A stretch of DNA of 64,000 nucleotides from an uncultured Anaerolineales bacterium (GCA_964388385.1 CAYMAQ010000001.1:20607-84606), one strand, 5' to 3'. Shown: positions 18,345-41,806, numbered from the stretch's first letter. The notes: generated from the sequence alone by a model not told the origin. Made by a program: numbers and translations.

Positions 18345-18362
18345 CGAACGGAAACTCTGACA

Positions 18363-19241
18363 TCAATCCAAACACAGTGAGGCGACCCGTTTCGCAACCC
18401 GGCGCGCATTCTGTCGCAAGAGGCCCAGAAGCGCCGAACCTCGGACGGGTACGGCTAAAATCGCATCGAGCACGCTGACGGCATAGAGCAAATAGCTGCC
18501 ACCGGCAATGCTCTGTTCAAATCGCAACTGTTCTTGCCCAAGGATGCGAGCGACTTCCGCAGAAGATTTCCAGCCTTGAACGACCACCCGAGCCAATGCC
18601 TGCGCCTCCTCCGCGCTGAAACGGCCCGTCCACGTGAGCAGCGTGTCATTCCGGGCCAAGATGACCCCATCAGATCCGACCTCCCTAGCCAGAGCCTCCA
18701 TCAGCTTCTGGACCCGTTCGCGATTTGCATTGAATGCGTCGAGGGAGAATTGTGGTTTCGCCTGTGATTCTGGCTCATCGGTCAAATCTTGAACCACAGG
18801 AGTTATCGCTCTGGAAACAGAGACGCTTTCAACCGGACCAGAACCAGGTGCGATGGGTTCAACCAAATCGGGGGCATCAGCACCCAGCGGTGCAGAAAAT
18901 GCCTCTTCGATCCGCGCCGGAAGTTCCGGAAGGAAAAACGGTTTGGGAAGAATACCTTGTACCGAAAGCGCCGCGACATCCTTCGGAAGCGCCTCCCCAT
19001 CCAGCGGAATAATTATCAGCCGCATCGCCGCATCATAGGAACGGAGGGCCCGCCCAACCCTGACCACCTGGGACGTACCCAACCCCATATCGAGGAAAGT
19101 TATATCAGGACAGTTGGTCTCTGCAGCCGCAAGCGCTTTCTGCCCATCAGCTGCGATGTCACCGCTGTAACCAAGACGTTTCAACTCATCGGATAATAAT
19201 GTTGCAAACGAAACGTTTGGATCCACGACAAGAAAATGCAT
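18363..19241 (-). CDS. response-regulator receiver fused to Roadblock/LC7 (MglB-like) domain
   Basis: N-terminal FLVVDPN...DITFLDMGLG receiver-like segment, apparently partly degenerate. C-terminal GSDGVILARNDTLLTW...GGSYLLYAVSV is Roadblock-like. ATG 19241 with GAGGAG RBS, 19 bp upstream of the GT-C gene. Confidence 0.6.
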   Translation of the reverse strand: MHFLVVDPNVSFATLLSDELKRLGYSGDIAADGQKALAAAETNCPDITFLDMGLGTSQVVRVGRALRSYDAAMRLIIIPLDGEALPKDVAALSVQGILPKPFFLPELPARIEEAFSAPLGADAPDLVEPIAPGSGPVESVSVSRAITPVVQDLTDEPESQAKPQFSLDAFNANRERVQKLMEALAREVGSDGVILARNDTLLTWTGRFSAEEAQALARVVVQGWKSSAEVARILGQEQLRFEQSIAGGSYLLYAVSVLDAILAVPVRGSALLGLLRQNARRVAKRVASLCLD

Positions 19242-19419
19242 CTGATCTCCTCGGTAAAGCACATGGCAGCAAACCAAATCCAGCGCTCTGTTCCTGTATT
19301 GTACGGGTTGGTAAAAATTTGGCAATAGGCCGACACGCTACAATCCGGCTGATGTCCCCGCAATCGTCAGATGACGGCCAACTGGACAATCCTCGCCGAA
19401 TAGTGGTAGAATACGGCCT

Positions 19420-21531
19420 ATGAATACACTCAGACCTCAACGGAATCGAATCAATCGTCAGATCCTAACACTTAGCGCCGTCCTTGCAGCACTGCTTTTC
19501 GGTGCACTTACGCATCGTTGGCTCGTACGTGCTGATAACGTGGTGGTTTTGCCATCAGTGATCGAAGCCAATGGAAGTATGGGAACGTGCTACAGTTTTT
19601 ATAAGCTCGAGGACAGTCAGAAGCCTCTGTCGACGGAAGCCTATGCGGCCGGTTCCCGGTGGGACCGCTTTGATTTCCGATGGAACGTAATTGAACCCAC
19701 AAAGGGGCAATTCTCGTTCGGCCCTCACGAGGAATTGGTCGACCGGAACCGGAACAACGGCCTTGAAGTCGTCGCGATCCTTGGCTCGACGGCGGAGTGG
19801 GCCTCGGGAAATTGCTCAAGTCGCTTGCAACAGACCCGGACGGACACGCTGCCGCAGGGGCACCCTCCCCCGCCGCAAAGCCCAGATGACGACATCTGGT
19901 GGCGCCCCTGCCCCCCTATCAATCTCCATCTGCCCTGGAATCACCCTGAAAATTACTGGGGACGATACGTCTACCAAACAGTCGAGCATTTCAAGGACAA
20001 GATCAACGTCTGGGAGATCTGGAACGAACCTGACCTACAATCCTTCTGGGCCAGCTCACCTGCGGACTATGCCCGGCTGCTCCAGGTCGGATACCAGGCC
20101 GTAAAGGCCGCAGATCCTGAGGCAACCGTGCTCTTTGGGGGGCTAGCGTACTGGGCGGATCCAAACTTCTATAAGCAGACCCTCCGGGAAATCCAGACGC
20201 TGGAGGGCGCCGTGGAGAACAACAGCTACTTCGATGTGCTTTCGCTTCACGCATACAGCAATATCTACCTGCTGCGACCGGTCGTCTCCGAAATTCAGAC
20301 GGAGATGATGACAACCGTCGGTCCGCATCCTATTTGGCTCACCGAGACCGGCGTGCCCATATGGGGCGAAAGCCAGCAGCCCTATCCTTATTCAAACTCG
20401 GCCACCGCGGAAGAAGCCGCCGCCTACATCATCGAAGCATATGCAGAGGCTCGTGCTGCCGGCGTTGAAAAATTCTTCGTCTTCCGCACCCATGACGAAG
20501 CGATGGGGGAGGCCTTCGGCTTGATTCGCAACGACCGTAGCCTGCGACCGGGTTACGTGGCCTATCAGGTAGCAGCCCGCTACCTGCAGGGAGAGAATCA
20601 GATCACCGGACCGTTCTCCGATGGTACCGTACGCCGCATCACCTTTTGGGGCACGCCCCAAGGCCGGATCGACGTGCTCTGGAAGGAGACGGGCGGAGAT
20701 GCAGTTCAATATCCACACCCCGCCATTGTCCCAACCGCCACGCTTATTGATCATCGCGGGCAAAGTCGGGCCCTAAATCCAACAGAAAGGACGTATACAG
20801 TGCCACTCCAACCGGCAACGGCGAATACCGGTGCCGGGGGCGCAACTATCATCGGCGGTCCGCCGGTCCTGCTGATCCAATCCGATCCGGAGCCCCCCTC
20901 CTCAGCGCTCCAACCGCTTTCTGCTGCAGTCTATACCACGGCCCTAACCCTTACGTGGAAGGTAACCGATACGGTCTCCGGCTATTGGTATGCGCAGGTC
21001 GAACAGGCACCCACATCCAATGGTCCGTGGACTTTGATCGCCGACTGGAGTGACACCAGGGGTGTAACGCACACCATCGTGAGGATCCCCTTGCATCAAC
21101 AGACATATTTCCGTGCTCGGGCCCGGAATAATGTCGGCAATTGGGAGCCGTGGCCCGCGACCGCCGAGACATGGACCACGGCCTATCTGACTCGCACGGT
21201 CAGTCTTTCACTCACAACCTATCTCGATGAAAACAGCAACAATGTATGGGATCCAGAGGAGACGCGCCCCCTCACCCCACCCGTTTTAAATTGGCGTTCT
21301 CGGGGTAGCACGGTCATCTCAGAGACCTTCGGAGTCTCGTGGCGGATCACCCAGACGGTGAGAACCGGTCCGCACATTTTGGAGGCGCAACTGCCACAGT
21401 ATCTCTACAGTCAAACTCCCTTCTTCGTCGCAGAACAACCGCTTACTCAGTCTTTTACAATGACGGTAGGACTGAAGCCCATTGGGGCGCGAAGCTATCT
21501 GCCCGTCGTCACCCGCAACGCAAACCCTTAG
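19420..21531 (+). CDS. secreted/anchored clan GH-A glycoside hydrolase (GH5/GH39-like) with Fn3 domain
   Basis: N-terminal signal anchor. WEIWNEPD (acid/base) and WLTETG (nucleophile) motifs, followed by an Fn3-like segment. The ATG sits right after a TGgTAGAAT promoter, so it looks leaderless. Confidence 0.7.
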   Translation: MNTLRPQRNRINRQILTLSAVLAALLFGALTHRWLVRADNVVVLPSVIEANGSMGTCYSFYKLEDSQKPLSTEAYAAGSRWDRFDFRWNVIEPTKGQFSFGPHEELVDRNRNNGLEVVAILGSTAEWASGNCSSRLQQTRTDTLPQGHPPPPQSPDDDIWWRPCPPINLHLPWNHPENYWGRYVYQTVEHFKDKINVWEIWNEPDLQSFWASSPADYARLLQVGYQAVKAADPEATVLFGGLAYWADPNFYKQTLREIQTLEGAVENNSYFDVLSLHAYSNIYLLRPVVSEIQTEMMTTVGPHPIWLTETGVPIWGESQQPYPYSNSATAEEAAAYIIEAYAEARAAGVEKFFVFRTHDEAMGEAFGLIRNDRSLRPGYVAYQVAARYLQGENQITGPFSDGTVRRITFWGTPQGRIDVLWKETGGDAVQYPHPAIVPTATLIDHRGQSRALNPTERTYTVPLQPATANTGAGGATIIGGPPVLLIQSDPEPPSSALQPLSAAVYTTALTLTWKVTDTVSGYWYAQVEQAPTSNGPWTLIADWSDTRGVTHTIVRIPLHQQTYFRARARNNVGNWEPWPATAETWTTAYLTRTVSLSLTTYLDENSNNVWDPEETRPLTPPVLNWRSRGSTVISETFGVSWRITQTVRTGPHILEAQLPQYLYSQTPFFVAEQPLTQSFTMTVGLKPIGARSYLPVVTRNANP

Positions 21532-21534
21532 GCC

Positions 21535-22851
21535 ATGGCACGGCGTGTGCTCGTCGGGTTAGTCGTGTGTCTTTTGCTGATAACGGGCCTATCGGGGGAT
21601 AGCGTGCTTACCCCACACCTCGACTGGATCGGGGAGGCAGCCACCCAAATCCGTGAGGGACGCTACACATCGGCAGAGACTGTCTACAAGCGTGCTATGG
21701 AACGAACACCTGAGGACGCCGGGCCTGCGTTGTATCTCGCTAGGCTCTATGCCGAATGGGGACAGCCCCAGCGTGGCTTGATAGCGGTGGACGAGGCCGT
21801 AGATCGTGGCGCCCAAGAGGATCTTGTAAGACCGCTCCGTTTTGATCTTTTGGCCCAGACCGAGCGCTGGACACAACTACGTTTCGAAGCTCGCCAACAG
21901 CTCTCACACGTGCCGACCGACCCAAAGGCCTGGCAAGCTCTGACAATAGCAGCGCTGCACCAAGGAGATTGTGCCGCAGCCACCGAGTCCGTGATCGGCT
22001 GGATCAACACAGAGTCATCTCGACCAGCGGAGGCGCTGTATTTTCTGGCGGTACTCTCGGCAGATCCAGACCGACTCGCCAGATTTGCACCCGAACTCCA
22101 CCAAAGGGCCTTTGTGTGTGGTGAGGTTTCACCCAGCTGTATAGGACACGCCCTCGTGCGCCAAGGATTCTGGGCGCACGCCATCTGCCCACTGCGTCAA
22201 GCCATTCGCCTGGACCCCCAGGACTCCGGAAGCCACGCATGGCTCGGTGAGGCGCTGACCCGCAACGATCTCCACGCGGAGGCCGAATCCCACTTACTTG
22301 AGGCCGTCCGCTTGGCGCCCAACGACCCACTCCCCTGGCTGCTCCTGGGAAAGCACTACCTCAATCTTGGCGAGACGAGCGCCGCGCGCAGGTCCCTTCT
22401 CAACGCACAGGCACTCGACCCGGCTAACCCGGCCCCCTGTCTGGCGATCGCGGAACTCAAAGCGCAGGCGAGTGCTTACGAAGAGATACAGACCTGGGCC
22501 GACGCAGCCCTGGAGCGAGCGCCCGACGACGCCGAGGTCTGGAAAGCTGTCGCCAGGCTCTACCTGGAGCGAAACCTAATCACGGACCGTTACCCCCTTT
22601 GGGCTGCAGAGGGTGCCGTCCGAATGGAGCCCGAAGATGGAGAGGCTCATATGCTGTTAGGGTGGGCCCATCTTCAATCAGAACGAACACAGGACGCGTT
22701 ACTGACACTCAAAAAGTCGACGGAGCTCGCGCCATACTCCGGTGAAGCTCATTTTTGGCTCGCACAGGCGCTGGAGGCTTCCGGTAGCGCCGAACAAGCC
22801 GAACAGGCACTGACACGAGCCGCCAATCTCGGTTATATCTCAGGCCGTTAA
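21535..22851 (+). CDS. secreted TPR-repeat protein
   Basis: Signal peptide followed by multiple 34-aa TPR-like repeats. Lies 4 nt after the GH gene. Confidence 0.7.
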   Translation: MARRVLVGLVVCLLLITGLSGDSVLTPHLDWIGEAATQIREGRYTSAETVYKRAMERTPEDAGPALYLARLYAEWGQPQRGLIAVDEAVDRGAQEDLVRPLRFDLLAQTERWTQLRFEARQQLSHVPTDPKAWQALTIAALHQGDCAAATESVIGWINTESSRPAEALYFLAVLSADPDRLARFAPELHQRAFVCGEVSPSCIGHALVRQGFWAHAICPLRQAIRLDPQDSGSHAWLGEALTRNDLHAEAESHLLEAVRLAPNDPLPWLLLGKHYLNLGETSAARRSLLNAQALDPANPAPCLAIAELKAQASAYEEIQTWADAALERAPDDAEVWKAVARLYLERNLITDRYPLWAAEGAVRMEPEDGEAHMLLGWAHLQSERTQDALLTLKKSTELAPYSGEAHFWLAQALEASGSAEQAEQALTRAANLGYISGR

Positions 22852-22855
22852 CCCA

Positions 22856-23938
22856 TCATCGTAGCGGTATGCTATTCGGCGGGATGCGTTCCGCGCGATA
22901 TGTTCCCCAGCCGCTGGGCAGCAACTCAACGTCCCATACGATCTCGCCCTCTGATGTGACCTCCACGTAGCGTGTTGTATCCCCTTCCGTCCGGGTGCCG
23001 AATGCAATCAGGGTATTGCCGTTGGATAGACGGTCTGCATCGCCCCAGATAGGACAGAAGAGATCCGGAGTATGGCGGTAGCTCCAGACAGCCTCAGCCG
23101 TCATCGCATCTTCATCGATCCGCAGCTCCAAAGCCCGTGTAAACTCGCCACCTTGGGATTCTGGGCGGTGCGTCCCGTTATCATAAAGAAGAATATTGCC
23201 GTTGGGTTGGAGTTCGGGTGAGTGCTGGTGATAGAAAAGATCCAACGGGTCCATATCAAAGTCGCCACCGACGCCCAGTCGCCACAGGATCTCCCCGGTC
23301 TGCCGACTGATTTTAAGAAGCTGATTCATATTCCGGCAGGAGATAATGAGCGCCCTATCCTTCAGATCCGGTTCGATCGTGTTCGTATGGCTGTAGTCAC
23401 GCCGATCCATCTCAGGCTGGTGATGATCAAAGAGATGCCAATTCCAGACCATCGTATGGGTCCTCGGATCCCACTCGACGATCTGATCGCCAACCAGGGT
23501 TTCGCCGCCGTAGGTCTCGAATCTGCGCGGGTCATCAAGTAGAAACATAAAGGTTCCATCCGGTGTCAGGTGAATGTGATGATGGTTAATCATAGGGCTC
23601 TCCCATAACAAATCCCCCTTCCAACTGACCAAGGCCGGATGCACACGAGCAATGCCCTCGTGAATGTTCGTCCCGCCGATAAGCACACCTCTCTTCGTAG
23701 TTCGGCTGTCGACGTCGCCGCGGAGGTCCGGGGCGTTTGCGGTCTGTCCCCACCAGAGCCTATCGTCAGACCGCTTATGTGACCAGACGATCTCACCCTG
23801 CGGATTCAGAATCGCCACCATGATGGGTGCACCCAGATTATGATTGGAAAAATTGACCAGGGTGAGGCCGGGCTGCATTTTTTCCTCGCGACAGACGTGC
23901 ACCTCGATCTCGGGCCAAAGGGCTTTATCACCCACCAT
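22856..23938 (-). CDS. arylsulfotransferase (ASST)-like beta-propeller protein, no signal peptide
   Basis: ASST/PQQ-propeller-like repeats (HHxHL, NGNxLxxDNG). ATG 23938 with AAAGGAG RBS. Confidence 0.55.
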   Translation of the reverse strand: MVGDKALWPEIEVHVCREEKMQPGLTLVNFSNHNLGAPIMVAILNPQGEIVWSHKRSDDRLWWGQTANAPDLRGDVDSRTTKRGVLIGGTNIHEGIARVHPALVSWKGDLLWESPMINHHHIHLTPDGTFMFLLDDPRRFETYGGETLVGDQIVEWDPRTHTMVWNWHLFDHHQPEMDRRDYSHTNTIEPDLKDRALIISCRNMNQLLKISRQTGEILWRLGVGGDFDMDPLDLFYHQHSPELQPNGNILLYDNGTHRPESQGGEFTRALELRIDEDAMTAEAVWSYRHTPDLFCPIWGDADRLSNGNTLIAFGTRTEGDTTRYVEVTSEGEIVWDVELLPSGWGTYRAERIPPNSIPLR

Positions 23939-23984
23939 ACCCATCTCCTTTCGCTGAATCCCCACGACGAGACATCCTACCCGG

Positions 23985-24012
23985 ATGATAGATCAGGACG
24001 TTCACAGGTCAA
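23985..24012 (-). promoter_or_regulatory. sigma70-like promoter for ASST-like gene (TTGACC-16-TATCAT)
   Basis: Minus strand reads cTTGACCtgtgaacgtcctgatcTATCATcc. Confidence 0.35.
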
Positions 24013-24141
24013 GCCACGGGCCAGAACGCGCGCGTTGTAACGTCATTTTCCGACTGTATGCACTATACCTACGGAGCCGGGCGGCGAGGCGCAAGCGGCA
24101 TTAAGAGGGTCCCAAGCCGATACGATACCTATAGCATCCGA

Positions 24142-27100
24142 TCAGGGGACCGTAATCTCACCGAGCAAGACAGCGTCGGTGCCGTCGGCGAGACGGAGAC
24201 GTTCTCCGCTCTCGTCATACATCCCAACGCGAAAATGATAAGTTCCATCCTTGACACCCTCGGGCACAATGAGTGTGCGGGTTTCGATAATCACCTCACC
24301 CACGGCCCAACCGGGCGTAGGGCGCGTCCAATCGACCGGTTCTCCGTCACTCTGAGCTACAAGATGCCCCCCGTCGTCAACGAGATGGACAAAAACGCGA
24401 TACGGGATCGCGATCTCATCAAGCGCCTGCCAAGCGAGTTCAACCTCCAACGACGAGCCAGGAGTCACCGACTGCTGTGGAATTGAGTAGCCAGCCAGGC
24501 GGATGACAGAACCAAACACCCGATCTGCACTCGTCAAGGTCTCAGGAACCGTCCAGATTCGCTCCGGCGCCTGGACGTCAAGAGGGATCTCGGCCAACGG
24601 GTCGCAGGAGGGGAGCTGAACTTTGATCGCGTACTGCCCACTCTCCAGAGAACCGGGCAACCGCAGGGCAGGACATCCTATCCACCGGTCACCGCGGCGC
24701 CATTGGTCCGTCGGCCACTGTGCAGCAGATGGAGGTATCTCCCAACTCTGCATAATCGTGCCCTGATCATTCTCAAGAATGACGTTTACCCATTTCGCAT
24801 GAGTGGGTTGACGGCGCGCTTCCCACACCCAGCGCAGATGCAGCGATTCTCCCGGCGCTAACGAAGCGCGGTCGGGTTCCACCTGCCACAGGCCCAGGGC
24901 ACCACAAGCCCGAAGTTCTGCCTGGGGAGTGACCCCCAGATCATGCAAAGTCGGAGGCGTATCAGGCGGGGCCAGCTGAATCGGTGCCAAAGAGAGCGCC
25001 GGCCCGACAGGATTGCCGTCGATGCCGATGACCGAGGCCGGCTCCAACGTCTTGCGGTCGAACAAGGACAATGTCGGTGTATAGATCCCCGGAGGGATTC
25101 CAGCAGGAAGACCCACCAGCTTATCCATCCGCGCATAGCTGTTCGCAGGCCAGGCTTGAACAGGAGGTGGGGTGCGCCCCCATCGAGCGGGGCGCATCAA
25201 TGTCGGCCATGCATCGCCATCGGAGTCCTCCAGGGAAAGACCGGTGTGCCAGTCTCCATCCCCTGGATTGAGCGCGCTCCAGAACATCGTGAATTCCTGG
25301 GTGGTCCCAGAGGGCACCATACCCGTCAGCCCCTCCGCACCTATCAACATAGCGCGGTCCCCAAAATTGATCTGCATCGGCGTCTCCACGCCGCGAAGGC
25401 TACCATCCTCCTGCAGCCTGGTAGCACGCCAGAGCCACGGTTGTCGATCGACAACACCCACCTTCAGTAAGATCAAAGCCAGACCCACGACAGAAGTCGC
25501 AACCACCGCATGGCGTGGTGGTCCTCGCCAACCCGTGAAGGTCCCGCCCCTGGGAAGACCGAGGGTCAGACCGACGAGGCCTGCGAGACTGATCGCGGAG
25601 ATCGCGTCTGCAGCCAATCGCAGCGGCGTCTCGCCAAAGGCTATCTCAATCTCATGCGTGCCGGCCGGCACACGAAAGGTGAGTAACCCTGAACCCGACG
25701 CCGGGACCACCGGCACCCGCACACCGTCAATGAAGGCCTTCCAGCCCGGATAGTAGAGTGCAAGATAGCGAGCTGTAAATGATTCCGGGGAAGACAACCG
25801 GATCCTTGCCCGGAGAGCGTCATAGCGGGACGCGTGAATGACAGCGCCCTCAGGAAGAGCGGTGGAGGGCAACCGCACGACGGGACCGCTGGTCTCGTAA
25901 TCATCGAGGAGCGATGGGGCCTCTACAAGGCGCTCCGCCCAGATGGGCAAATATTCACCCTTGGCCGTTGTTCCAAGCGTATCTGTCGTATGCTCCCACC
26001 GGATCATCGAATCGACCGAGATTTCAGAAGGGGGCGAACAATGGTCAGGGAAAAACCAACCGAGATTGGCAAAAATGAGTACCACTATCCCGAGTACGGG
26101 CAATAAATCCGCGCTGACGTCGTACTTTTCTCGAAGCCACGTAGAACCCGCAGCGGTTCCGGCTCCGATCAAGAGTGAAAGGGAAAACGCAGCAGGGCCG
26201 AGATAACGCCAGGGGAATTGAACGTATGATAACAACAGCACCCGATCCCAAAGAAACTGGGAAGGCGCGAGGGTCAGTGCAGAAAAAAACAGAGCCAGAA
26301 AAACCAAGCTGCCGACGAATCCGCGCTCAGGCTTCTCAAGCTTGTGCCAGAAAACGATGGGGACCAATCCCAGGATTGCAGGCACCAAACCCAAGCTTTT
26401 TTGTGGCCAATCGTTGACAAGGTTAGGATCGGCGCGTCGGGGCAGCGCGAGCAGATGATCGAGGGGCAGGAAATTGTATCGATAGTCGAAGACCCATGTT
26501 CCCAGCAGTCGCCCCGTCTGGACATACGCCCGTTCGACCATGGGTGGCAGCCAAAAAAAGGCCGTGATCCCCAATCCTAACAAGCCGAACAACGCACCGC
26601 GCCCCACAGCATCCGGTTCTCGCATCTGTATGGCCAAAAGTACAACCCAAAGGATCAGCAACGGCGCAAAGAGAAAGGCGAAGAGGTGATGGCTCATCAC
26701 CATCGCCGCAAACGCGGCGGTACCGATCCATAGAGCGCGGCGATCTTTCAACCGAACCCAGCGATGGAGCCCCCAGAGCACCAGCGGGGGCCACGCCCAT
26801 GCAAAGGCTTCCCACAAGCTGCCTCGATTGAAGATGTCGTAGGCCTGAAACGGTGCGTAGACATAGGCAATCCCCGCAACCCAACCCGCCTCGCGACCAA
26901 AGAGTTCGCGGGCCAGCTTGACCATCGTAAGTCCACCGAGGACGACGCCGAGTGCGAAAACAGCATTCATCGAAACCGTCCACGCTGCCCCCATCTGATG
27001 CAGCAACGCAACCAACGAGGGCGGAAACGGCGAAGTAAAGAGATAAAGGGGAAAGCCCAGGCCGTGTGCCATCGCAGGCGCCCAACGTGAGTAGAGAACC

Positions 27101-27291
27101 CCCTGCTCCCACAGCGATGCGATCTGCACCGCACGCCAGAGATGAAAGATGTGATCGTATCCACATGCCAACGTGTCAACCAGCAAGGGCTGTAGAGCCG
27201 GAATGCTGAAAAGCAAGGGGACAACGAGGTCGAGGGCGCGATCCACGACCCGCATAACCCGAGGTGAGTTGGCGCGTCGAGACGTTATCAT
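24142..27291 (-). CDS. giant (1049 aa) GT-C-like polytopic membrane protein (YfhO/PTPS-related-like) with three tandem C-terminal beta-rich modules
   Basis: N-terminal region has about 12 TM helices with CGYDHIFHLWR. Then a periplasmic domain with YYPGWKAFIDG, one TM helix, and three ~120-aa repeats. ATG lies immediately after the upstream gene's TAA. Confidence 0.7.
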   Translation of the reverse strand: MITSRRANSPRVMRVVDRALDLVVPLLFSIPALQPLLVDTLACGYDHIFHLWRAVQIASLWEQGVLYSRWAPAMAHGLGFPLYLFTSPFPPSLVALLHQMGAAWTVSMNAVFALGVVLGGLTMVKLARELFGREAGWVAGIAYVYAPFQAYDIFNRGSLWEAFAWAWPPLVLWGLHRWVRLKDRRALWIGTAAFAAMVMSHHLFAFLFAPLLILWVVLLAIQMREPDAVGRGALFGLLGLGITAFFWLPPMVERAYVQTGRLLGTWVFDYRYNFLPLDHLLALPRRADPNLVNDWPQKSLGLVPAILGLVPIVFWHKLEKPERGFVGSLVFLALFFSALTLAPSQFLWDRVLLLSYVQFPWRYLGPAAFSLSLLIGAGTAAGSTWLREKYDVSADLLPVLGIVVLIFANLGWFFPDHCSPPSEISVDSMIRWEHTTDTLGTTAKGEYLPIWAERLVEAPSLLDDYETSGPVVRLPSTALPEGAVIHASRYDALRARIRLSSPESFTARYLALYYPGWKAFIDGVRVPVVPASGSGLLTFRVPAGTHEIEIAFGETPLRLAADAISAISLAGLVGLTLGLPRGGTFTGWRGPPRHAVVATSVVGLALILLKVGVVDRQPWLWRATRLQEDGSLRGVETPMQINFGDRAMLIGAEGLTGMVPSGTTQEFTMFWSALNPGDGDWHTGLSLEDSDGDAWPTLMRPARWGRTPPPVQAWPANSYARMDKLVGLPAGIPPGIYTPTLSLFDRKTLEPASVIGIDGNPVGPALSLAPIQLAPPDTPPTLHDLGVTPQAELRACGALGLWQVEPDRASLAPGESLHLRWVWEARRQPTHAKWVNVILENDQGTIMQSWEIPPSAAQWPTDQWRRGDRWIGCPALRLPGSLESGQYAIKVQLPSCDPLAEIPLDVQAPERIWTVPETLTSADRVFGSVIRLAGYSIPQQSVTPGSSLEVELAWQALDEIAIPYRVFVHLVDDGGHLVAQSDGEPVDWTRPTPGWAVGEVIIETRTLIVPEGVKDGTYHFRVGMYDESGERLRLADGTDAVLLGEITVP

Positions 27292-30200
27292 TTACTGACC
27301 CTCGACCGGTATTATTGTCTCCAGGATGACGCCGTCCCCACCGAGATTTGTCGCCAACCGCGTGCCGTCCTCGTGGTAAACCCCGACCCGGACTGTGTAG
27401 GCATCAGAGCCTGCACGGTCCGACACTTCCACAGACCGAGATTCTACAACCACCTCACCGACGGCCCATCCAGGGGTCGGTCGGCCCCAAGAAACGGGAA
27501 CCCCGTCGCTCTGATCAATCATCCGACCCTCGGCATCCAATAAATGGACGAAAATCCGATAGGACTTATCCAATTCAGTGACAGCCTGCCAAGCCAGCGA
27601 GACCGTCAGGGTCTCACCGCTATCGACACCAGCCGTATCCACACGATATCCGACCAATCGAATCCTGTCGCCGAAGAGGATATCCGTCGTAGTGAGACCG
27701 TCCGGCACCGTCCATCGCCGTTCCGGCGCCTCGACCCCCAAAGCCACCCGTGCCAATGGATCAGCACACCCCTCCAAGCGCGCCTCGAAGGTGTAAGATC
27801 CGGTTGCCAAACCGCCGGGCAGTCGGAGCACGTGTTGACCCAGCCACCGATCTCCAACTCGCCATCGATCCGTAGGCCACCAACTCGCGACCGGGGGAAG
27901 CAACCAGCTATCCAAAACCTCATCGTCTCGATCGGTCAAAGAGATCTCCGCCAAACGGACACGAGCCGGCGCTCCAGTCGCTTCCCACACCCACCGTACA
28001 GCCACAAGACCACCGGGAGCGGCACTTCCGCGGTCCAGGGTCATCGACCAAAGCGCGATCCCATCACACGCACTTGGGGGTTCGGGCGCGCTCACACCGA
28101 GATCAGACAAAGAAGGAGAGACTGCGGGACGGACGATCTCGATCTCACCGAGAACCAGTTCAGTGCCCAAGGGTTCACCCTGCGGACCGAATAGCGTCGC
28201 GGGCTCGAGGGTATCGCGGTCGAAGAGACCAACCACGACATCGTAGGTCCCGGGTGGCGTACCCGGCAGCGGCGACACAAGGTGCGGGTCAAAGACAAAC
28301 TCACCGGGTTGCCACATCATTGTGGGTGGTGGCGGCTCATATCCGCGAGGCCGCAGGGTTCCGGCGGGGCTCCAAGTGCGTCCCTCCCGTCCCACCAGGA
28401 GTATCGACGTTCTATACTCAGCAGAGGGAGTCGCCCGCGCGATCCAGAGCAGATCGATCCTGAGTTCATCGTCGGCGGTCACCAAATCGGTTTCAACCCG
28501 GGCACCGATCAAATCAAGTCCTACGTCGTAGACGTGTGCGACCGGCGTCAGTCCCTCCGGCATCCGTCCTGCGCCTAAGCGAGATATCGGAACTGCCGCC
28601 CCCGACCGCCCGATGAACAACCGCAGGATGGTTATCCCCGACACCACAGCAAGCCAAACTACCGTCATAGTGGGATCCACCCTAGTAGGAGCCATTCTCG
28701 ATACATCAAGAGGGGGGCTCTCGTTACGGCAAGCAGGCCAATGGCCCCAAAGCGAGGATCCGATCCAGCCTACTAGCCCAACAACCGTCATGGACAGAGC
28801 CAAACTGCGAGCGGTCGTCGCACCCAGCCAAACTTCCACCTCATAAGTGCCGGCAGGCACCGGAAATGTGAGAAATCCGGTATCCTCCTCCGGAGAGACA
28901 GAAACCGGCTTCCCATTGACAGATGCTTTCCAACCCGGAAAGTAAAGCCCTAACCAACGTGCCTGAAATGCCTGAGGGGTTGATAGAACTAGGGAAGCAC
29001 GCAGAGGTCGGTAAACAGACTCGTCGATGGTGACACCCTCTGGCAACGAGGCGGCATCCAGTCGTTCCGGCAGCTCCCCGCGGATAAAAGCTTCGGCTAA
29101 CTGAGTATCAGTGGGATGCGTTTCGACCCAGATTGGAAAATAACTGCTTTCTGGGTCGATCCCGATCCAGCCGGCACGCTCATATCGGTAGACATCCTCG
29201 ATCGTTGGATAAGGCTCCTCAGCACAGATACCTTTAGGTGGAAATGTTCGGGGCCAGGCCAGGATCGTCAAAGCGACGACCAGGGCGAGTGCGAAAACCC
29301 CGCGAACCCGTGAAGGTCTCACGGAAGAGTCACGTAAGGACAACGGAGACGCATCCTCTCCCACAACAGCCCCAGCCAACAAACTCACCGGCAGCAAAGC
29401 CCGCCCTACCAGACGCCACGGAAACTGCACGAAAGCCAGCAAGGGAAAGGCCTCCCACACACCTACCGAGGGCGCGGTCGCAAGCCAGAGATATCCGATC
29501 GCAACACACCCAAAGAGAGCCGCTACCCATCGTCTGGCAGACGTCCCGCCTCGCCACAGAATCCACCCCAGGCCCAAGAGACCCAACAAGCCGGGACCGA
29601 TCCCCAGCGGGACGCGCATCGGGGGATTAAGATAGTTGGGGTCGTGGCTCAAAGGCGGGGTAAGAAGTATCTCCCGCCACGTCAAAAAGTTGAAGTGAAA
29701 ATCGTTGTTGCGCGTTGTTCGTGAGAGATGCAGTTGAACGAAATGCTGTTCTGTGAGGGCCGGCAGCCAGAACCACGCAGCAACTAGAGTGGCCAGACCC
29801 ACCGCCAGGAATGCCCGCGGCCAATAACCCCGACGCCGGTGAATAATCGACAGCACAAGGGTATAAAGGCCGAGAAAGGGTGCAAGCAGAAGGGACGAGA
29901 TATTGTGACTCAAAAAGAGCCCGATCAACAGGGACGTGCTTGCGACAAATGCGCCGCGTTTCCCATAAAGAATAACACGTCGCACGCTCAAGAACAGCCA
30001 GGGGAGTATCGCCAGGGCCACAGACTCCGGCATGTTACCCCGTCTCAGCACATCCAAGAGCACATAGGGTCCCAGGCCATAGGCGACGCCCGCGACCCAC
30101 CCCGCCCACCCACCCCACAGATCGTCGGCCAGCGCTCCCGCACCGATCGCGCCGGCGAGAAGACTGATACCGTAAATCAGCCCCAAAACCAGGGGAATCG

Positions 30201-30477
30201 GAATTTCGATCAGGGCCAACAACTCACCGACAAGATACGGAACCGGTTCTCGGTAATTGAAAAATGGGTATCCGTGGCCCAGGGCCAGGTTGGGAAGCCA
30301 GCGAGCGAAGACCCACCCGTGTTTGAACATATCGCGCATAGCCACAATTCGATATTGATGCCATATATTGTCATGCGTACATGGCAACGATGTCGAGTTG
30401 AGGAGCGGAATAAGGACAGGCAACAAAAGAACGAAGAGAACCAGCCACCGCACAAGGTTGGATCGTTGGTATGTCAT
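27292..30477 (-). CDS. giant (about 1061 aa) GT-C-like polytopic membrane protein, tandem paralogue of 24142..27291
   Basis: Collinear with the paralogue (CTHDNIWHQYR, YFPGWKASVNG, TM helix, three repeats). Start chosen as ATG 30477 with no RBS; starts further upstream would overlap the CDP-alcohol transferase gene. Confidence 0.7.
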   Translation of the reverse strand: MTYQRSNLVRWLVLFVLLLPVLIPLLNSTSLPCTHDNIWHQYRIVAMRDMFKHGWVFARWLPNLALGHGYPFFNYREPVPYLVGELLALIEIPIPLVLGLIYGISLLAGAIGAGALADDLWGGWAGWVAGVAYGLGPYVLLDVLRRGNMPESVALAILPWLFLSVRRVILYGKRGAFVASTSLLIGLFLSHNISSLLLAPFLGLYTLVLSIIHRRRGYWPRAFLAVGLATLVAAWFWLPALTEQHFVQLHLSRTTRNNDFHFNFLTWREILLTPPLSHDPNYLNPPMRVPLGIGPGLLGLLGLGWILWRGGTSARRWVAALFGCVAIGYLWLATAPSVGVWEAFPLLAFVQFPWRLVGRALLPVSLLAGAVVGEDASPLSLRDSSVRPSRVRGVFALALVVALTILAWPRTFPPKGICAEEPYPTIEDVYRYERAGWIGIDPESSYFPIWVETHPTDTQLAEAFIRGELPERLDAASLPEGVTIDESVYRPLRASLVLSTPQAFQARWLGLYFPGWKASVNGKPVSVSPEEDTGFLTFPVPAGTYEVEVWLGATTARSLALSMTVVGLVGWIGSSLWGHWPACRNESPPLDVSRMAPTRVDPTMTVVWLAVVSGITILRLFIGRSGAAVPISRLGAGRMPEGLTPVAHVYDVGLDLIGARVETDLVTADDELRIDLLWIARATPSAEYRTSILLVGREGRTWSPAGTLRPRGYEPPPPTMMWQPGEFVFDPHLVSPLPGTPPGTYDVVVGLFDRDTLEPATLFGPQGEPLGTELVLGEIEIVRPAVSPSLSDLGVSAPEPPSACDGIALWSMTLDRGSAAPGGLVAVRWVWEATGAPARVRLAEISLTDRDDEVLDSWLLPPVASWWPTDRWRVGDRWLGQHVLRLPGGLATGSYTFEARLEGCADPLARVALGVEAPERRWTVPDGLTTTDILFGDRIRLVGYRVDTAGVDSGETLTVSLAWQAVTELDKSYRIFVHLLDAEGRMIDQSDGVPVSWGRPTPGWAVGEVVVESRSVEVSDRAGSDAYTVRVGVYHEDGTRLATNLGGDGVILETIIPVEGQ

Positions 30478-30547
30478 CAACAGGATTGTACCATGTTCCC
30501 GTGACCCGAAAACATTCGAACGGCCGCTGATGAAAAGCTGATCGCCG

Positions 30548-31162
30548 TTACGGCTCCTGCAGCGAGACCTGATAGACGTGGAGCATCCTCTGCGCAACGG
30601 TAAACCAGGTGAGGGTCGCCATCACGACAAGCGTGAACCGAACAATCCCCGGCACAATAAGGCCGACGGCCAGGAAAACCACACGTACAACCCGCGTAAA
30701 CAAGCCTACCTCACAGGTATATCCCAGACCTTCAGCACGAGCGCGCGTGTAACTGACCATCACGGAACCAAGCAGAATCAGGAAGAGAAGCGCAATATCA
30801 GCGACCCGCCTCGCACTCAACGCCCACACCATCAAGCCGAAAAGAACCGCGCCCTCAGAGAAACGGTCCAACGTCGAATCAAGGAAGGCACCGAACCGAC
30901 TTTGTTGTCGCGTCTCCCTCGCCAAGGACCCGTCCAGACCATCGACGGAGGAAGTTAAAAGCATAAGGATCCCACCCACCTGCAACCGACCGGCAGCCAG
31001 GACAGCCCCGACCCCCGCCGTTAATAGAAATCCTAACCAGGTCAGCTGATTCGGTCGCACTCCCCATCGCGCCAAAAAACCGATAACAGGACGTATCACG
31101 CCGGCCATCCGCTTTCGCAGCCAGTCTGTGAACGTGAAAGATGTATCACGCTGGGTTGACAC
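30548..31162 (-). CDS. CDP-alcohol phosphatidyltransferase (PI/PGP-synthase-like)
   Basis: Exact D-G-x2-A-R-x8-G-x3-D-x3-D motif (DGLDGSLARETRQQSRFGAFLDSTLD) and about 5 TM helices. GTG 31162 or ATG 31108 as start. Confidence 0.8.
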   Translation of the reverse strand: MSTQRDTSFTFTDWLRKRMAGVIRPVIGFLARWGVRPNQLTWLGFLLTAGVGAVLAAGRLQVGGILMLLTSSVDGLDGSLARETRQQSRFGAFLDSTLDRFSEGAVLFGLMVWALSARRVADIALLFLILLGSVMVSYTRARAEGLGYTCEVGLFTRVVRVVFLAVGLIVPGIVRFTLVVMATLTWFTVAQRMLHVYQVSLQEP

Positions 31163-31281
31163 GGAAATCGGGCACCTCCCTACAGAATAGATCGCGGTAT
31201 GAATGCCAGGAACGAACGTATCCTACTCCAGACCGGTATCCTGTCAACTACAGATCTGGGCATAAAACACTGAATTTTCCC

Positions 31282-31310
31282 TTGCTGTTTTGTTCCAATT
31301 GCGTTAGAAT
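31282..31310 (+). promoter_or_regulatory. candidate promoter for mutL (TTGCTG-17-TAGAAT)
   Basis: Seen directly. The TSS would fall about 4 nt before an in-frame ATG at 31321. Confidence 0.3.
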
Positions 31311-31386
31311 CGCCTTACACATGCCGAATTGTGAACCAGACATCAGTCCCAACCGAGAGTGGACGAAAAGATCCGGACTTACCCAC

Positions 31387-33162
31387 ATGCCCATTCGATT
31401 GTTACCTGAGGAAATTGCATCCCGAATCGCCGCTGGCGAGGTCGTCGAGCGCCCTGCATCAGTCGTCAAAGAGTTGATGGAAAATAGCCTGGATGCCGGT
31501 GCGACCCGGATCGAGATCGAAACTATCGATGGCGGCAAAAAGCGGATTCGAGTCCGGGACAACGGGGTCGGCATCCCCCGTGATGAAGTGCCGCTTGCCT
31601 TCCGTCGCCACGCCACCAGTAAGCTCGAAACCACCGAGGATCTGGAGAGGATCACCACCCTGGGATTTCGCGGTGAGGCACTTTCAAGCATCGCGTCGGT
31701 TAGCCGGGTGACGTGTACGACCAGGCACGTTGAGGAATCGACGGGCACGCACATTCGCCTGGAGGGTGGTGAAGTAATCACCACCCGATCAGTAGGAATC
31801 CCGCCGGGGACCGAGATTCTCATCGAGGATCTCTTCTACAATGTACCTGCCCGCCGCAAGTTCCTGCGGACCGATCGAACAGAGCGGCGCCATATTGACA
31901 GCTTCCTTACACGATATGCCATTGCGTATCCGGACGTTGCCTTTCAGGTGCACCACGATGGACGTGAGGTACTCCTCACGTCGGGTCACAGTCGGCCCCA
32001 AGAGGTGTTGATCAACGTCTACGGTATGGAATTGGGGGCGAACCTGCTGGAGATCCCTGCCGCATTGACGGACGGTCGCGTCATTCGCGTGCGCGGTTTT
32101 GTCGGGCCACCCACCGTGCATCGCGCGAACCGTGGCTATATCACGATTTTCGTCAATGGGCGCTGGATCGAAAACACGATGCGCCTGAACTATGCCGTGA
32201 TCCAAGCTTATCATACCCTGCTGCCCGTCAAGCGCTATCCCGTCGCGTTTGTCCTAATCGATCTCCCTAACGAGGACGTCGACGTCAACGTCCATCCAAC
32301 AAAAGCGGAGGTTCGCTTCAGGGACGGCGATGCCGTATTCCGAGCCGTCCAGCGCGCAGTTCGTGCGACGGTCATTCAGGAGTCTCCGGCAGCGGCGGCG
32401 TTCGAGGAAGCGCGTCCAGAGACGGATACGACGCCCGATCAGGCCGCGGAAACCGATACTCAGAGAAATCGATCTCGCCTGCGACAGATCCAACCCCGGG
32501 AGCAGCAATTTCGGCTGCCGAATCAGGACACGACCGTTACTGTGACAAAGCCAGCCGGATCCACCACTCAAGGTCAACCGGGGAGAGCGCTGCCGCCCCT
32601 GCGAATCCTTGGTCAGGCTGCCACGATGTTCATCATCGCTGAGGGGCCGGACGGCCTCTACCTGATTGATCAACACGCAGCTCACGAGCGGGTACTCTAC
32701 GAGCAGATGGTATCGGAGGAGGCCCGGGGGCAAATTCGAACTCAAACACTTTTGGAACCCGCGATGGTCTCTCTTCCGGCGGATGCAGCCGCGCATCTCG
32801 AAGAACTGCTGCCCACGATCCATCAACTCGGTATTGAAGTCGAGACCTTTGGCCCCAACACATTTCGAGTTCGCGCGCTGCCAGCTCACCTTACAGACGT
32901 ATCACCCGGTGATCTTCTGGCCGATATTGCGAGCAGCTTGGAGGCCGATTCGACAGTGGACGACGAGCTTGAGGAGGCGCTCGTCAGGCAAATCTGCAAA
33001 CGTGCAGCCGTCAAGGCGGGGCAGGTCCTCGCGCCGGAGGAGATGAAACAGTTGATCCGCGATTTGGAGCAGACGATCAACCCGCGAACGTGTCCTCATG
33101 GCCGTCCGACCATCATCCAGATTTCAACAGAAGCGCTGGCCCGGCAGTTTGGACGGATCTAG
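31387..33162 (+). CDS. mutL: DNA mismatch repair protein MutL
   Basis: MPIRLLPEEIASRIAAGEVVERPASVVKELMENSLDAGATRIEIE GHKL ATPase N-terminus plus C-terminal dimerisation domain. An in-frame ATG at 31321 would add 22 aa. Confidence 0.9.
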   Translation: MPIRLLPEEIASRIAAGEVVERPASVVKELMENSLDAGATRIEIETIDGGKKRIRVRDNGVGIPRDEVPLAFRRHATSKLETTEDLERITTLGFRGEALSSIASVSRVTCTTRHVEESTGTHIRLEGGEVITTRSVGIPPGTEILIEDLFYNVPARRKFLRTDRTERRHIDSFLTRYAIAYPDVAFQVHHDGREVLLTSGHSRPQEVLINVYGMELGANLLEIPAALTDGRVIRVRGFVGPPTVHRANRGYITIFVNGRWIENTMRLNYAVIQAYHTLLPVKRYPVAFVLIDLPNEDVDVNVHPTKAEVRFRDGDAVFRAVQRAVRATVIQESPAAAAFEEARPETDTTPDQAAETDTQRNRSRLRQIQPREQQFRLPNQDTTVTVTKPAGSTTQGQPGRALPPLRILGQAATMFIIAEGPDGLYLIDQHAAHERVLYEQMVSEEARGQIRTQTLLEPAMVSLPADAAAHLEELLPTIHQLGIEVETFGPNTFRVRALPAHLTDVSPGDLLADIASSLEADSTVDDELEEALVRQICKRAAVKAGQVLAPEEMKQLIRDLEQTINPRTCPHGRPTIIQISTEALARQFGRI

Positions 33163-33209
33163 TGAGGACGATAACAAAAACTGCAACCCACCTATGAACC
33201 CACACAAGG

Positions 33210-33659
33210 ATGAACACGATGACCCTATCTAAAGGAGTACGTTCTAGGATAACGCAGCTGGCAAACCAGATCGTGGCGCAATATCACCTCAAAGACCCGC
33301 CGGTCCCTGTCGAGACGATCTTGTCCAATCCACCGGGAGAGTTGGAGGGCGTGGATATCACGGATCTCTCCCTGGTGTTTGGCGCGGGTGAGCACCGCCA
33401 TGAATATCGTTTGGGACTGGGTCGGCTGCTCTATCGGGAGATATGTCGTGCTGGCCTTGAGGCCCCCCCGATGCCTTATACCGGCGAAGCTGCCCGAGCC
33501 TTCGCCAAAGAACTCCTGGCTCCCGCGATGTGGCTGAAGCCAGCGGCTCAACGTCCGGGCGTCACGCTCCAGGATCTTGGTGAGGAGTTTCAACTTCCGG
33601 AGTATACTGTCGCCAGCCGTCTGGTGGAGCTGGGGCTTTGGGTCGAGGGAATGGAGTAA
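33210..33659 (+). CDS. ImmA/IrrE-family (COG2856-like) protein with degenerate HEXXH
   Basis: The C-terminal GEAARAFAKELLAPAMWL...FQLPEYTVASRLVELGL matches the ImmA ExxANxFAxELLMP...RL pattern. The expected HEXXH reads HEYRL. Confidence 0.5.
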   Translation: MNTMTLSKGVRSRITQLANQIVAQYHLKDPPVPVETILSNPPGELEGVDITDLSLVFGAGEHRHEYRLGLGRLLYREICRAGLEAPPMPYTGEAARAFAKELLAPAMWLKPAAQRPGVTLQDLGEEFQLPEYTVASRLVELGLWVEGME

Positions 33660-33707
33660 GCATCACCTGGAAGGGAACCTGCAGCCCTCCTGGACGCTCA
33701 ACCGACA

Positions 33708-34625
33708 TCACCGATCGCCACGGTCGTTGGGGTGCACGATCTCGACCCCGGCGACGATGTCGGACGTAGGGGTCCGGTAAGCATAGGCCAGGTTGGGCGT
33801 GTTATGCGCGAGTCCTATTCGTCCCTGACGATCGACAAGAACGACCCCGCCGTATCCCCGCACCCGATCCCAGAGCTTGTCGATCACAGCATCAGCCGCC
33901 TCCTGAGCCGAGAGTCCTCGCGCCATCAAATCACACGCGGTCTTGCTGGTCACGATGCGCATCAAATCCTCACCGGAACCCGTAGCAACCGCCGCGCCGA
34001 TCTCGTTATCGGCGTAGGCGCCGCAGCCGATCAAGGGCGAATCCCCAACGCGTCCGGGCCACTTGTTCGGCGTACCTCCCGTCGAGGTCGCGACCGCCAT
34101 GTTTCCGTCGCGATCGATAGCAACCGCTCCCACGGTATCGCCCAATCGCACCGGCGACGCCAGGCTGTGCTTGGGAGGCGACCAGCCGCCAGGGTCCTCA
34201 CGCCCCCACGGGATGTCTTTCGATACCCGTGCTACACCGTAGGACTCGGCAAGGGCCTCGGCCCCTGCCCCAACAATCAATCGATGTTCGCAGCGCTCCA
34301 TGATGTGTCTGGCGAGAGTAATCGGATGAGAGATGTCCCTGACAGCAGCAACCGCACCGAACTCCAAAGTGCGACCATCCATCAGGATGGCGTCCATTTG
34401 GACGTCACCCACCCGGTTGAAATAACTCCCTCGCCCGGCATCGAACGTCGGATCGTCCTCTAGAATCCGGACTGCGATCTCTACGACGTCAACGGCTGAA
34501 GTTCCTCCAACCAAATGCGCCCATCCCGCTGCAACAGCTTCTTGACATCCTGCAGTTGCACGCGTTCGTTCCTCATCCGCAATATACCAAGCTCCACCGT
34601 GTACCACCAAGACCGGATGCACCAA
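33708..34625 (-). CDS. isoaspartyl peptidase / plant-type L-asparaginase (Ntn hydrolase)
   Basis: VVHGGAW...GTVGAVAIDRDGNMAVATSTGG. TTG/GTG start preceded by AAGGGGG. Confidence 0.85.
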   Translation of the reverse strand: MVHPVLVVHGGAWYIADEERTRATAGCQEAVAAGWAHLVGGTSAVDVVEIAVRILEDDPTFDAGRGSYFNRVGDVQMDAILMDGRTLEFGAVAAVRDISHPITLARHIMERCEHRLIVGAGAEALAESYGVARVSKDIPWGREDPGGWSPPKHSLASPVRLGDTVGAVAIDRDGNMAVATSTGGTPNKWPGRVGDSPLIGCGAYADNEIGAAVATGSGEDLMRIVTSKTACDLMARGLSAQEAADAVIDKLWDRVRGYGGVVLVDRQGRIGLAHNTPNLAYAYRTPTSDIVAGVEIVHPNDRGDR

Positions 34626-34991
34626 CCCAACCCCCTTCTCGTCGACCTGGCGTCCCGCCGAGAATCCTTTACGTAGATCACCAGGGTTCTATTATAATCT
34701 GATCATAAATGACTAAAGCGGTTCTGCGTTCCCCTGGATATCACAGAAAAGTTTAGCGTTTTATGTCCGGATCTATATGACCGCGTATATCAGCTCCAAC
34801 GATTATAGACATCACCTCCGATGTGGCAAGACCCACCGCGCCGGAGTCACCCGACCCCGGGCCACACACCGAACTTGTCTTTTCATCGGGGGACGCCAAA
34901 ATTGCGCACGCGACTATGGGCGAGCTTACAATAAACTGCATTGAGGATATGACGCTAGGAGGAGACCCTGATCAAACGCAAAAACGGTTGG

Positions 34992-36887: not shown

Positions 36888-36920
36888 TAGCGATCAATCG
36901 AAACGCGAGGGATCTCGTGA

Positions 36921-38402: not shown

Positions 38403-38851
38403 TGCACTAATTTGAGATCGCGATCGTACACAAACTTCGCATGGAAAAAGTCAGTGTCCGAACTCAGAATCCGGGGAGCGAAGATTGCATCGGCCTGTGG
38501 AATCGGCAGGTCACGATAATAGCGCGCCAAGGGAACCCAATCCAACGCGCCCTCCCGAAGGTCTGGGGTAAGTTTGCCCTCAAAACAGTGGGCCACGTAG
38601 ATAAAGAGGAACCACTGCCAATCAGGTCGTGGGGAAACTTCGGTGCAAAACCCCTTCCAGTCCAGATTGCTTACATGAAGGCCCGTCTCCTCAAACATCT
38701 CGCGCTTTGCCGCGTCCATCGGGGATTCATCAAGTTCCACTTTGCCGCCGGGAGCGATCCAAAGACCGAGGTTCGGCGCCTTGTTGCGATGAATAAGCAG
38801 CACCTCGTCGTCCTGCTTCGCATAGACCAACACACTGGCGATCCTTGCCAT
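38387..38851 (-). CDS. NUDIX hydrolase
   Basis: Nudix box GGKVELDESPMDAAKREMFEETGL. Confidence 0.8.
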   Translation of the reverse strand: MARIASVLVYAKQDDEVLLIHRNKAPNLGLWIAPGGKVELDESPMDAAKREMFEETGLHVSNLDWKGFCTEVSPRPDWQWFLFIYVAHCFEGKLTPDLREGALDWVPLARYYRDLPIPQADAIFAPRILSSDTDFFHAKFVYDRDLKLVQWIEY

Positions 38852-41783: not shown

Positions 41784-41806
41784 TCCGACAACCATCAAAA
41801 CACAAT

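Follow-up and report, generated by a model that had tools for sequence, protein, structure and literature searches.

YfhO, PTPS_related and PMT_2 are families of GT-C glycosyltransferases. Little is understood of the Chloroflexota cell envelope; for Anaerolineae in particular, we know of no defined teichoic acid, lipopolysaccharide or lipoglycan. For YfhO, which works with a GT2 enzyme in the three-component CsbB/YfhO scheme, the extracytoplasmic domain is thought to bind the acceptor polymer (PMC8035078). Phosphatidylinositol phosphate (PIP) synthases bind the phosphate of inositol phosphate through two absolutely conserved arginines, R153/R191 in the Renibacterium enzyme RsPIPS and R155/R195 in M. 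tuberculosis PgsA1 (PMC4634129), and a further source describes inositol lipids as relatively rare in bacteria (PMC9246714). Here, we describe a three-gene locus in a 64,000-nt stretch of DNA from an uncultured Anaerolineales bacterium (GCA_964388385.1, CAYMAQ010000001.1:20607-84606; hereafter the window), in which a predicted PIP synthase (C) precedes two giant GT-C glycosyltransferases (A and B). We consider it likely that C, A and B form one transcription unit kept in an Anaerolineae clade and that this operon is a conserved extracytoplasmic envelope-glycosylation unit that includes a PIP synthase. We found no earlier account of an operon leading from a PIP synthase to GT-C enzymes.

Gene order and conservation of the locus

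Open reading frame (ORF) calling in the window places C, A and B head to tail on the minus strand, in that order:

30548..31162, minus strand: C, 204 amino acids (aa), GTG start; CDP-alcohol phosphatidyltransferase best read as of the PIP-synthase type (Pfam CDP-OH_P_transf, 2.4e-14)
27292..30477, minus strand: A, 1061 aa from ATG; predicted GT-C glycosyltransferase of the PTPS_related/YfhO lineage, ending in a tail of three beta-sandwiches
24142..27291, minus strand: B, 1049 aa; paralogue of A with identical architecture
31220..31247, minus strand: sigma-70-like promoter candidate TTGACA-16-TAGGAT from a consensus scan, about 58 nt 5' of the start of C

The frame of A stays open to a TTG at 30597 (27292..30597, 1101 aa); because its orthologues are about 1060 aa long, the ATG at 30477 was taken as the start. 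At the A/B junction (...GGTCAGTAA followed by ATGATA...), the ATG of B stands directly 3' of the TAA of A. Both this abutment and the presence of two collinear giant proteins of 1049 and about 1061 aa agree with the original prediction, which was made from the sequence. C and A are separated by 70 nt, and neither the C-A nor the A-B intergenic gap contains a terminator-like site. The promoter candidate is a weak indicator, with four such sites in the region against 3.2 expected by chance. The TAA-ATG abutment, the 70-nt gap, the terminator-free gaps and the adjacency of C to a GT-C gene in relatives together argue for a single operon.

The best database match of A is 73% identical, and all relatives are Anaerolineae metagenome-assembled genomes labelled Thermoflexales, Anaerolineales, Ardenticatenaceae or Promineifilaceae. 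Related loci, defined as those holding an A orthologue (47-73% identity), were analysed with 10-kb flanks. C lies directly 5' of a GT-C gene on the same strand in all 32 loci where the contig reaches far enough, with a gap of at most 273 nt in 31 of them (median 74, minimum 1); the exception is L021, where a 683-aa GT-C-like gene with a beta-module of identical type intervenes between C and A. Most loci also have a B orthologue next after A; L019 and L021 lack it, and the short L022 contig shows none. In every related locus, A is the best match of the first gene and B that of the second, indicating that the duplication is old and that both copies have been retained. The C/GT-C link persists despite displacement of MutL in L002, L014-L016 and L018. 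Co-conservation of the trio, named earlier as a check on the idea, is thus seen within one Anaerolineae clade. However, synteny reaches over much of the surrounding 25 kb, taking in the epimerase, NUDIX, Wzy_C, asparaginase, MutL, TPR, GH39-like, response regulator and PMT_2 genes, so that part of this conservation is inherited gene order.

Several features of the immediate surroundings vary among loci. An ORF of 60-70 aa is called between giant GT-C genes in L002 (13470-13652), L004 (13217-13402) and L085 (13234-13446); the window has none, since the TAA of A abuts the ATG of B. An ArsR-type HTH_5 regulator touches or overlaps C from upstream in L002 (9011-9331) and L004 (8806-9132) and is absent in the window. 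Giant beta-helix/CLIPPER-repeat surface proteins of 1900-3300 aa are encoded just 5' of C in L002 (1-8644) and L021 (646-6417); they are possible glycosylation targets and are not conserved neighbours. In the window, a divergent MutL gene is separated from C by 227 nt. As listed, the MutL ORF (31141..33162, plus strand) is extended at its N terminus by about 80 codons, which overlap the start of C on the opposite strand; MutL itself probably begins at the Met of MPIRLLPEE, near 31390.

Domain architecture of A and B

A and B align from end to end with 35% identity and 51% positives (E = 0). B matches Pfam YfhO (PF09586) with 50.7 bits against a gathering cutoff of 28.5, and A matches PTPS_related (PF10131) with 30.8 bits against 26.4; there are also weaker PMT_2 matches. 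The YfhO and PTPS_related matches span only part of each profile, and a precomputed PF10131 match is present in most homologues. Of the families that the original prediction named for comparison, YfhO and PTPS-related are thus matched above Pfam cutoffs, whereas the mycobacterial ones are not matched by sequence: A and B have no Emb, Aft, Mpt or PimE family match in Pfam, in NCBIfam or, by sequence, in the Protein Data Bank (PDB). Membership in Emb/Aft/Mpt was accordingly rejected at the sequence level, the likeness to AftD, AftA and AftB being one of fold only. A profile of 50 A/B-family members also finds no match in the PDB by sequence.

The membrane core and the parts that follow it were delimited in an AlphaFold2 model of A built on a 50-member alignment (mean predicted local distance difference test score, pLDDT, 86.9; predicted template modelling score, pTM, 0.81), and motif conservation in the A/B family was scored in a 50-sequence alignment:

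29245..30477, minus strand: A, GT-C transmembrane (TM) core, residues 1-411, about 11-12 helices in the model
30349..30381, minus strand: A, motif of the first extracytoplasmic loop (EL1), C33-T-H-D36-N-I-W-H40-Q-Y-R43, residues 33-43, directly after TM1; D36 candidate catalytic Asp
27133..27165, minus strand: B, EL1 motif C43-G-Y-D46-H-I-F-H50-L-W-R53; D46 candidate catalytic Asp
28825..29229, minus strand: A, extracytoplasmic beta domain, residues 417-551, carrying YFPGWKA (residues 512-518); strands at 483-551 in the model
28606..28815, minus strand: A, two-helix membrane hairpin, residues 555-624 (helices 555-576 and 602-624), with an Arg-rich disordered cytoplasmic loop

In the model, TM1 (residues 2-25) leads into the EL1 motif, and about ten further helices extend to residue 411, in keeping with the roughly 12-TM N-terminal domain first proposed. 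The CxxD..H..R loop described at that time occurs in both proteins and is conserved across the 50 sequences, with H40 and R43 invariant and C33, H35 and D36 at least 90% conserved. Both proteins thus have the conserved acidic residue in the first extracytoplasmic loop that is used to recognise GT-C enzymes, and D36 of A and D46 of B are candidate catalytic aspartates. The (Y/F)(Y/F)PGWKA motif, likewise noted earlier, reads LYFPGWKAS in A and LYYPGWKAF in B, with P514, G515 and W516 invariant, and the beta domain that carries it matches the YfhO profile near the C terminus, at positions 785-820 of 835. Between this domain and the tail, a single TM helix had been expected; the model instead shows a two-helix hairpin, the loop of which falls below a pLDDT of 50 at residues 587-597. 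Two helices are also what the topology demands, because the periplasmic domain and the tail both have to be extracellular.

A structural search with the model of A returned GT-C enzymes for all top matches, sharing a conserved multi-helix membrane core (search figures: STT3B 20.2, Pmt4 19.6, PglB 18.7, Pmt2 18.2, AglB 16.0, AftD 15.5, AftA 15.3, ALG9 14.0, ALG12 13.7, DPY19 13.3, AftB 13.0 and ArnT 12.9). The GT-C-like fold was therefore recovered as predicted. This search bears directly on whether the N-terminal domains are enzymes at all or are instead transporters, scaffolds or, for one of the paralogues, a dead partner. The partial Pfam matches and the failure of any solved structure to match by sequence would suit such a non-enzymatic role, but no transporter occurs among the top structural matches, which removes the transporter alternative, and the EL1 Asp, His and Arg are kept in A, B and 50 homologues; we regard a non-enzymatic role as highly improbable. 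Collectively, the modelled fold, family membership and domain order mark A and B as predicted members of the YfhO/PTPS-related lineage of GT-C glycosyltransferases, each bearing three beta-sandwiches as an extracytoplasmic tail.

When the C-terminal 450 residues were compared with themselves by BLAST, no repeats were detected. Using hhalign on sub-alignments, three modules of A were found to be mutually homologous (probability 98.4-99.5%, E 4e-14 to 6e-22), and together with the AlphaFold model this confirms the three tandem repeats seen at the outset:

28132..28548, minus strand: A module 1, residues ~644-782; hhalign against module 3, 99.5%, E 5.8e-22; strands in the model
27733..28074, minus strand: A module 2, residues ~802-915; hhalign against module 3, 99.0%, E 7e-17, and against module 1, 98.4%
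27295..27705, minus strand: A module 3, residues 925-1061; canonical copy, beta-sandwich ~929-1055 in the model
24961..25392, minus strand: B module 1, residues 634-777
24565..24927, minus strand: B module 2, residues 789-909
24148..24546, minus strand: B module 3, residues 916-1048

Module 3 contains a conserved motif of aromatic and polar residues, W..H..Q.DG.P..W.RPT.GW...E, which is specific to the module. The fold neighbours of a single module are GH2 Ig-like domains, Wzt O-antigen-binding domains and macroglobulin (MG) domains, at 12-16% identity. As modelled, the fold is one typical of carbohydrate-active proteins and lies outside any defined carbohydrate-binding module (CBM) family, so that the "CBM-like" repeats of the original prediction hold as beta-sandwiches of a carbohydrate-active kind and not as members of a curated family. 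Assignment to a specific CBM family was rejected, with no sequence match to any.

Hidden Markov models (HMMs) of the module also match the C-termini of three further GT-C-like proteins in the window, one copy each (E 5e-19 to 9e-12):

34992..36887, plus strand: unassigned 631-aa GT-C-like protein with a single module
50033..52000, plus strand: DUF2079 protein with a single module
8143..10254, plus strand: PMT_2-like protein with a single module

A phmmer search against 1.84 billion cluster representatives found 15,396 module-bearing proteins at E <=1e-3, many of them about 1000 aa long with three copies, and all named matches are Chloroflexota. Among 50 sampled module proteins, the catalytic domains were PMT_2 (22), PTPS_related (6), PMT (5), TMEM260-like (4), DUF2142 (1) and YfhO (1). 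These results indicate that the module and its triple tail are a widespread, uncurated accessory of Chloroflexota GT-C enzymes. Its occurrence on PMT_2, PMT, TMEM260-like, DUF2142 and DUF2079 proteins fits a general acceptor- or wall-holding role, and a module carried by more than 15,000 GT-C cluster representatives merits a family definition and a ligand.

The presence of the tail on PMT, PMT_2 and TMEM260-like catalytic domains would also suit a different role, in which A and B are PMT-like or TMEM260-like protein O-glycosyltransferases acting on secreted or surface proteins, such as the giant beta-helix/CLIPPER proteins, and C is an unrelated housekeeping lipid gene. The very large surface proteins encoded 5' of C in L002 and L021 point the same way, as does a faint NCBIfam match of B to PgfM1, a streptococcal YfhO-family enzyme that reportedly glycosylates proteins. 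However, the genes for these surface proteins are not conserved as neighbours, and the match to PgfM1, at 13.5 bits where the cutoff is 1400, is negligible. We regard this role as unlikely.

C and the proposed role of the operon

C carries the signature D74-G-L-D77-G-S-L-A-R-x8-G91-A-F-L-D95-S-T-L-D99, a perfect instance of the CDP-alcohol motif D-x2-D-G-x2-A-R-x8-G-x3-D-x3-D. Across 40 C homologues, D74, D77, G78, A81, G91, D95, D99, S137, R160 and R192 are invariant and R82 is at least 90% conserved, so that the upstream CDP-alcohol phosphatidyltransferase with a perfect motif named in the original prediction is upheld. Among NCBIfam models, C scores best with archaetidylinositol-phosphate synthase (archin_ph_syn, 156.6 bits, cutoff 180) and bacterial PIP synthase (PIPSynth, 131.7 bits, cutoff 170), followed by pgsA (32.6 bits, cutoff 109.1) and pssA (26.8 bits, cutoff 107). 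Its best PDB relatives are RsPIPS (5d92, 2.6e-22) and M. tuberculosis PgsA1 (6h53, 5.8e-18). When C is aligned with HMMER to 6h53 and 5d92, its R160 and R192 fall on R155/R195 of the M. tuberculosis enzyme and R153/R191 of the Renibacterium enzyme, and S137 is the equivalent of M. tuberculosis S132. The NCBIfam ranking, the nearest solved structures and the two conserved arginines therefore make C PIP-synthase-like, and it is best read as a PIP synthase. The phosphatidylinositol (PI)/phosphatidylglycerophosphate-synthase type foreseen earlier can thus be narrowed to the PIP-synthase (PgsA1) type. Assignment to PgsA or PssA (the JGI annotation being phosphatidylglycerophosphate synthase) was rejected, given 32.6 and 26.8 bits against 132-157 for the PIP synthase and archaetidylinositol-phosphate synthase (AIPS) models.

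The three-gene operon probably serves cell-surface glycan assembly. A and B would have their active sites at the outer face of the cytoplasmic membrane and, by analogy to all characterised GT-C enzymes, would take sugar from a polyprenyl-phosphate-linked donor and pass it to an acceptor on the extracytoplasmic side. This acceptor would most likely be a polymer (a polysaccharide of the wall or sheath, or a different surface glycoconjugate), held by the periplasmic beta domain of YfhO type together with the three tethered modules. A and B may add successive or different sugars as non-redundant steps, possibly as a heterodimer like Pmt1-Pmt2. C most likely condenses CDP-diacylglycerol and inositol-1-phosphate to phosphatidylinositol phosphate. 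A chemical link between this product and the activity of A and B is possible, though less likely than not.

Some results weigh against this account of the operon as an envelope-glycosylation unit. C falls under the NCBI equivalog cutoffs of PIP synthase and archaetidylinositol-phosphate synthase alike. The beta-module has no curated CBM or Pfam family match, so that glycan binding is suggested only by its fold neighbours. No polyprenyl-phosphate sugar synthase of the GT2 type (Glycos_transf_2) and no GtrA gene was found in a scan of 41 window ORFs, nearly all of those of at least 150 aa (ORFs below 150 aa lay outside the scan), or among the called genes of related loci. The CsbB-like GT2 and GtrA-type flippase of the YfhO three-component scheme were thus not found nearby, and such genes might be elsewhere in the genome. 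In addition, a literature search for a characterised PTPS_related protein found none with biochemical data.

More distant A/B paralogues (36-41% identity) bear on the donor. Some stand alone, and the 10 kb around them hold no CDP-alcohol transferase; others lie in operons that run from SurE, GT2 and phosphodiesterase genes into a series of four to six giant GT-C genes, in which stop and start codons overlap. L085, L086 and L087 (each ~3000-23000), from another Anaerolineae lineage, are of the latter kind, with SurE, GT2, type I phosphodiesterase and 4-6 GT-C genes of 850-1250 aa, and resemble assembly lines made almost wholly of GT-C enzymes. These operons repeat the pairing of GT2 with GT-C seen in CsbB/YfhO (PMC8035078), and the GT2 neighbours of the paralogues would lend indirect support to a polyprenyl-phosphate-linked donor for A and B.

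The adjacency of C and the GT-C genes could be taken further, to a dedicated assembly line for a PI-anchored glycolipid or lipoglycan that follows the mycobacterial logic of phosphatidylinositol mannosides (PIM), lipomannan (LM) and lipoarabinomannan (LAM): C would make the anchor, A and B would extend the glycan at the outer leaflet, and the modules would hold the chain. In favour of this, C shows the signature of PIP synthases together with the two arginines for inositol phosphate. Its adjacency to a GT-C gene is unbroken in 32 loci, including those in which upstream genes have moved, B is missing (L019, L021) or another GT-C gene follows C (L021, L027), and C/GT-C gaps as small as 1-20 nt suggest translational coupling. 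PI is, moreover, reported among the major polar lipids of some Chloroflexota, being a major polar lipid in Dictyobacter (PMC12453558). However, the locus does not provide the remainder of such a pathway. PimA/PimB'-like GT-B enzymes, an acyltransferase and a Ppm1-like synthase are absent among the scanned window ORFs and the related-locus flanks, and no inositol-1-phosphate synthase occurs among the scanned window ORFs. A and B stand outside the Emb, Aft and Mpt families by sequence, the beta-module is generic to Chloroflexota GT-C proteins and sits on many unrelated catalytic domains, and the nearest paralogues belong to GT2-linked operons that lack a CDP-alcohol transferase. Adjacency by itself is weak, since housekeeping neighbours are equally syntenic, and the literature search found nothing relevant on inositol glycolipids or lipoglycans in Anaerolineae or Thermoflexus. 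A dedicated PI-anchored line is therefore rather doubtful, and still more so the stronger proposition that this Anaerolineae clade makes a PI-anchored glycolipid or lipoglycan from one operon with an origin independent of the actinobacterial PIM/LM/LAM machinery. A true coupling to PI would mean that PI-anchored surface glycans arose a second time, independently; without such a coupling, the locus would be a further example of the large uncharacterised GT-C repertoire of Chloroflexota. An envelope-glycosylation unit that includes a PIP synthase remains the reading we favour.

Neighbouring genes and comparison with known systems

Beyond C, A and B, the window is unusually dense in envelope glycosylation genes, here the PMT_2-like and Wzy_C genes, which are listed with other neighbours:

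8143..10254 and 10251..12242, plus strand: two PMT_2-like genes overlapping by 4 nt
16335..18344, minus strand: third PMT_2-like gene, adjoining a response regulator gene
19420..21531, plus strand: signal-anchored protein with a weak GH39 match
21535..22851, plus strand: signal-anchored TPR protein; with the preceding gene, convergent with B
22856..23965, minus strand: arylsulfotransferase-like (ASST, beta-propeller) gene between B and the convergent TPR gene; separate promoter-like site at 24012..23985
36921..38402, minus strand: Wzy_C O-antigen-ligase-like gene, adjoining NUDIX and epimerase genes

In nearly all related loci a TPR gene comes after the GT-C genes; a GH39-like gene does so in about half of them. 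GH39 is the family of the Pseudomonas Psl glycosidase PslG, and the GH39-like and TPR pair may be part of the same envelope-glycan system as C, A and B. The ASST-like gene has no tblastn counterpart within the 10-kb flanks of any of the 27 related loci, which suggests an insertion specific to its lineage. A scan with ARAGORN over the whole 64 kb (1..64000) gave neither a tRNA nor a tmRNA gene.

Among known systems, YfhO of B. subtilis, S. aureus and L. monocytogenes, which acts in the modification of teichoic acids with N-acetylglucosamine by CsbB/GtcA/YfhO, resembles A and B as a multi-pass GT-C protein with an extracytoplasmic domain. B matches the family above the Pfam cutoff, both proteins match its C-terminal (Y/F)PGW region, and their paralogues adjoin GT2 genes as YfhO does CsbB. 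However, A and B have an extra hairpin and three modules, about 480 residues outside the YfhO profile, the match covers part of its 835 positions, and the operon partner in the A/B clade is a PIP-synthase-like enzyme rather than a GT2. We know of no teichoic acids in Anaerolineae.

The mycobacterial PgsA1 and AftD/EmbC/MptA/B enzymes offer a second comparison. PgsA1 (6h53, E 5.8e-18) shares both key arginines with C, and the GT-C enzymes share large extracytoplasmic beta-rich domains with A and B. In contrast, A and B lack sequence-level membership in Emb/Aft/Mpt, and a GT-B mannosyltransferase, Ppm1 and Ino1 were not found at their locus. In mycobacteria, pgsA1 shares its transcript with genes for an acyltransferase and PimA and is not known to do so with a GT-C gene. 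Compared with RsPIPS, M. tuberculosis PgsA1 and archaeal AIPS, C has the full CDP-alcohol signature and invariant equivalents of M. tuberculosis S132, R155 and R195, but Arg in place of K135 and Val in place of P153; with equivalog cutoffs not reached, its activity is a predicted one.

STT3/PglB/AglB and PMT enzymes are only 8-10% identical to A and B, which lack WWDYG or MIR-domain features and differ in their soluble domains. Relative to Wzt, GH2 Ig-like and MG domains (12-16% identity), the module has its own W/H/Q/D/R/E motif and no Pfam or CBM family. Collectively, the protein families of A, B and C are known, the beta-module is uncurated, and on present evidence the locus is not a new class of system; it is a conserved operon linking an enzyme of the PIP-synthase type with GT-C glycosyltransferases that are extracytoplasmic.

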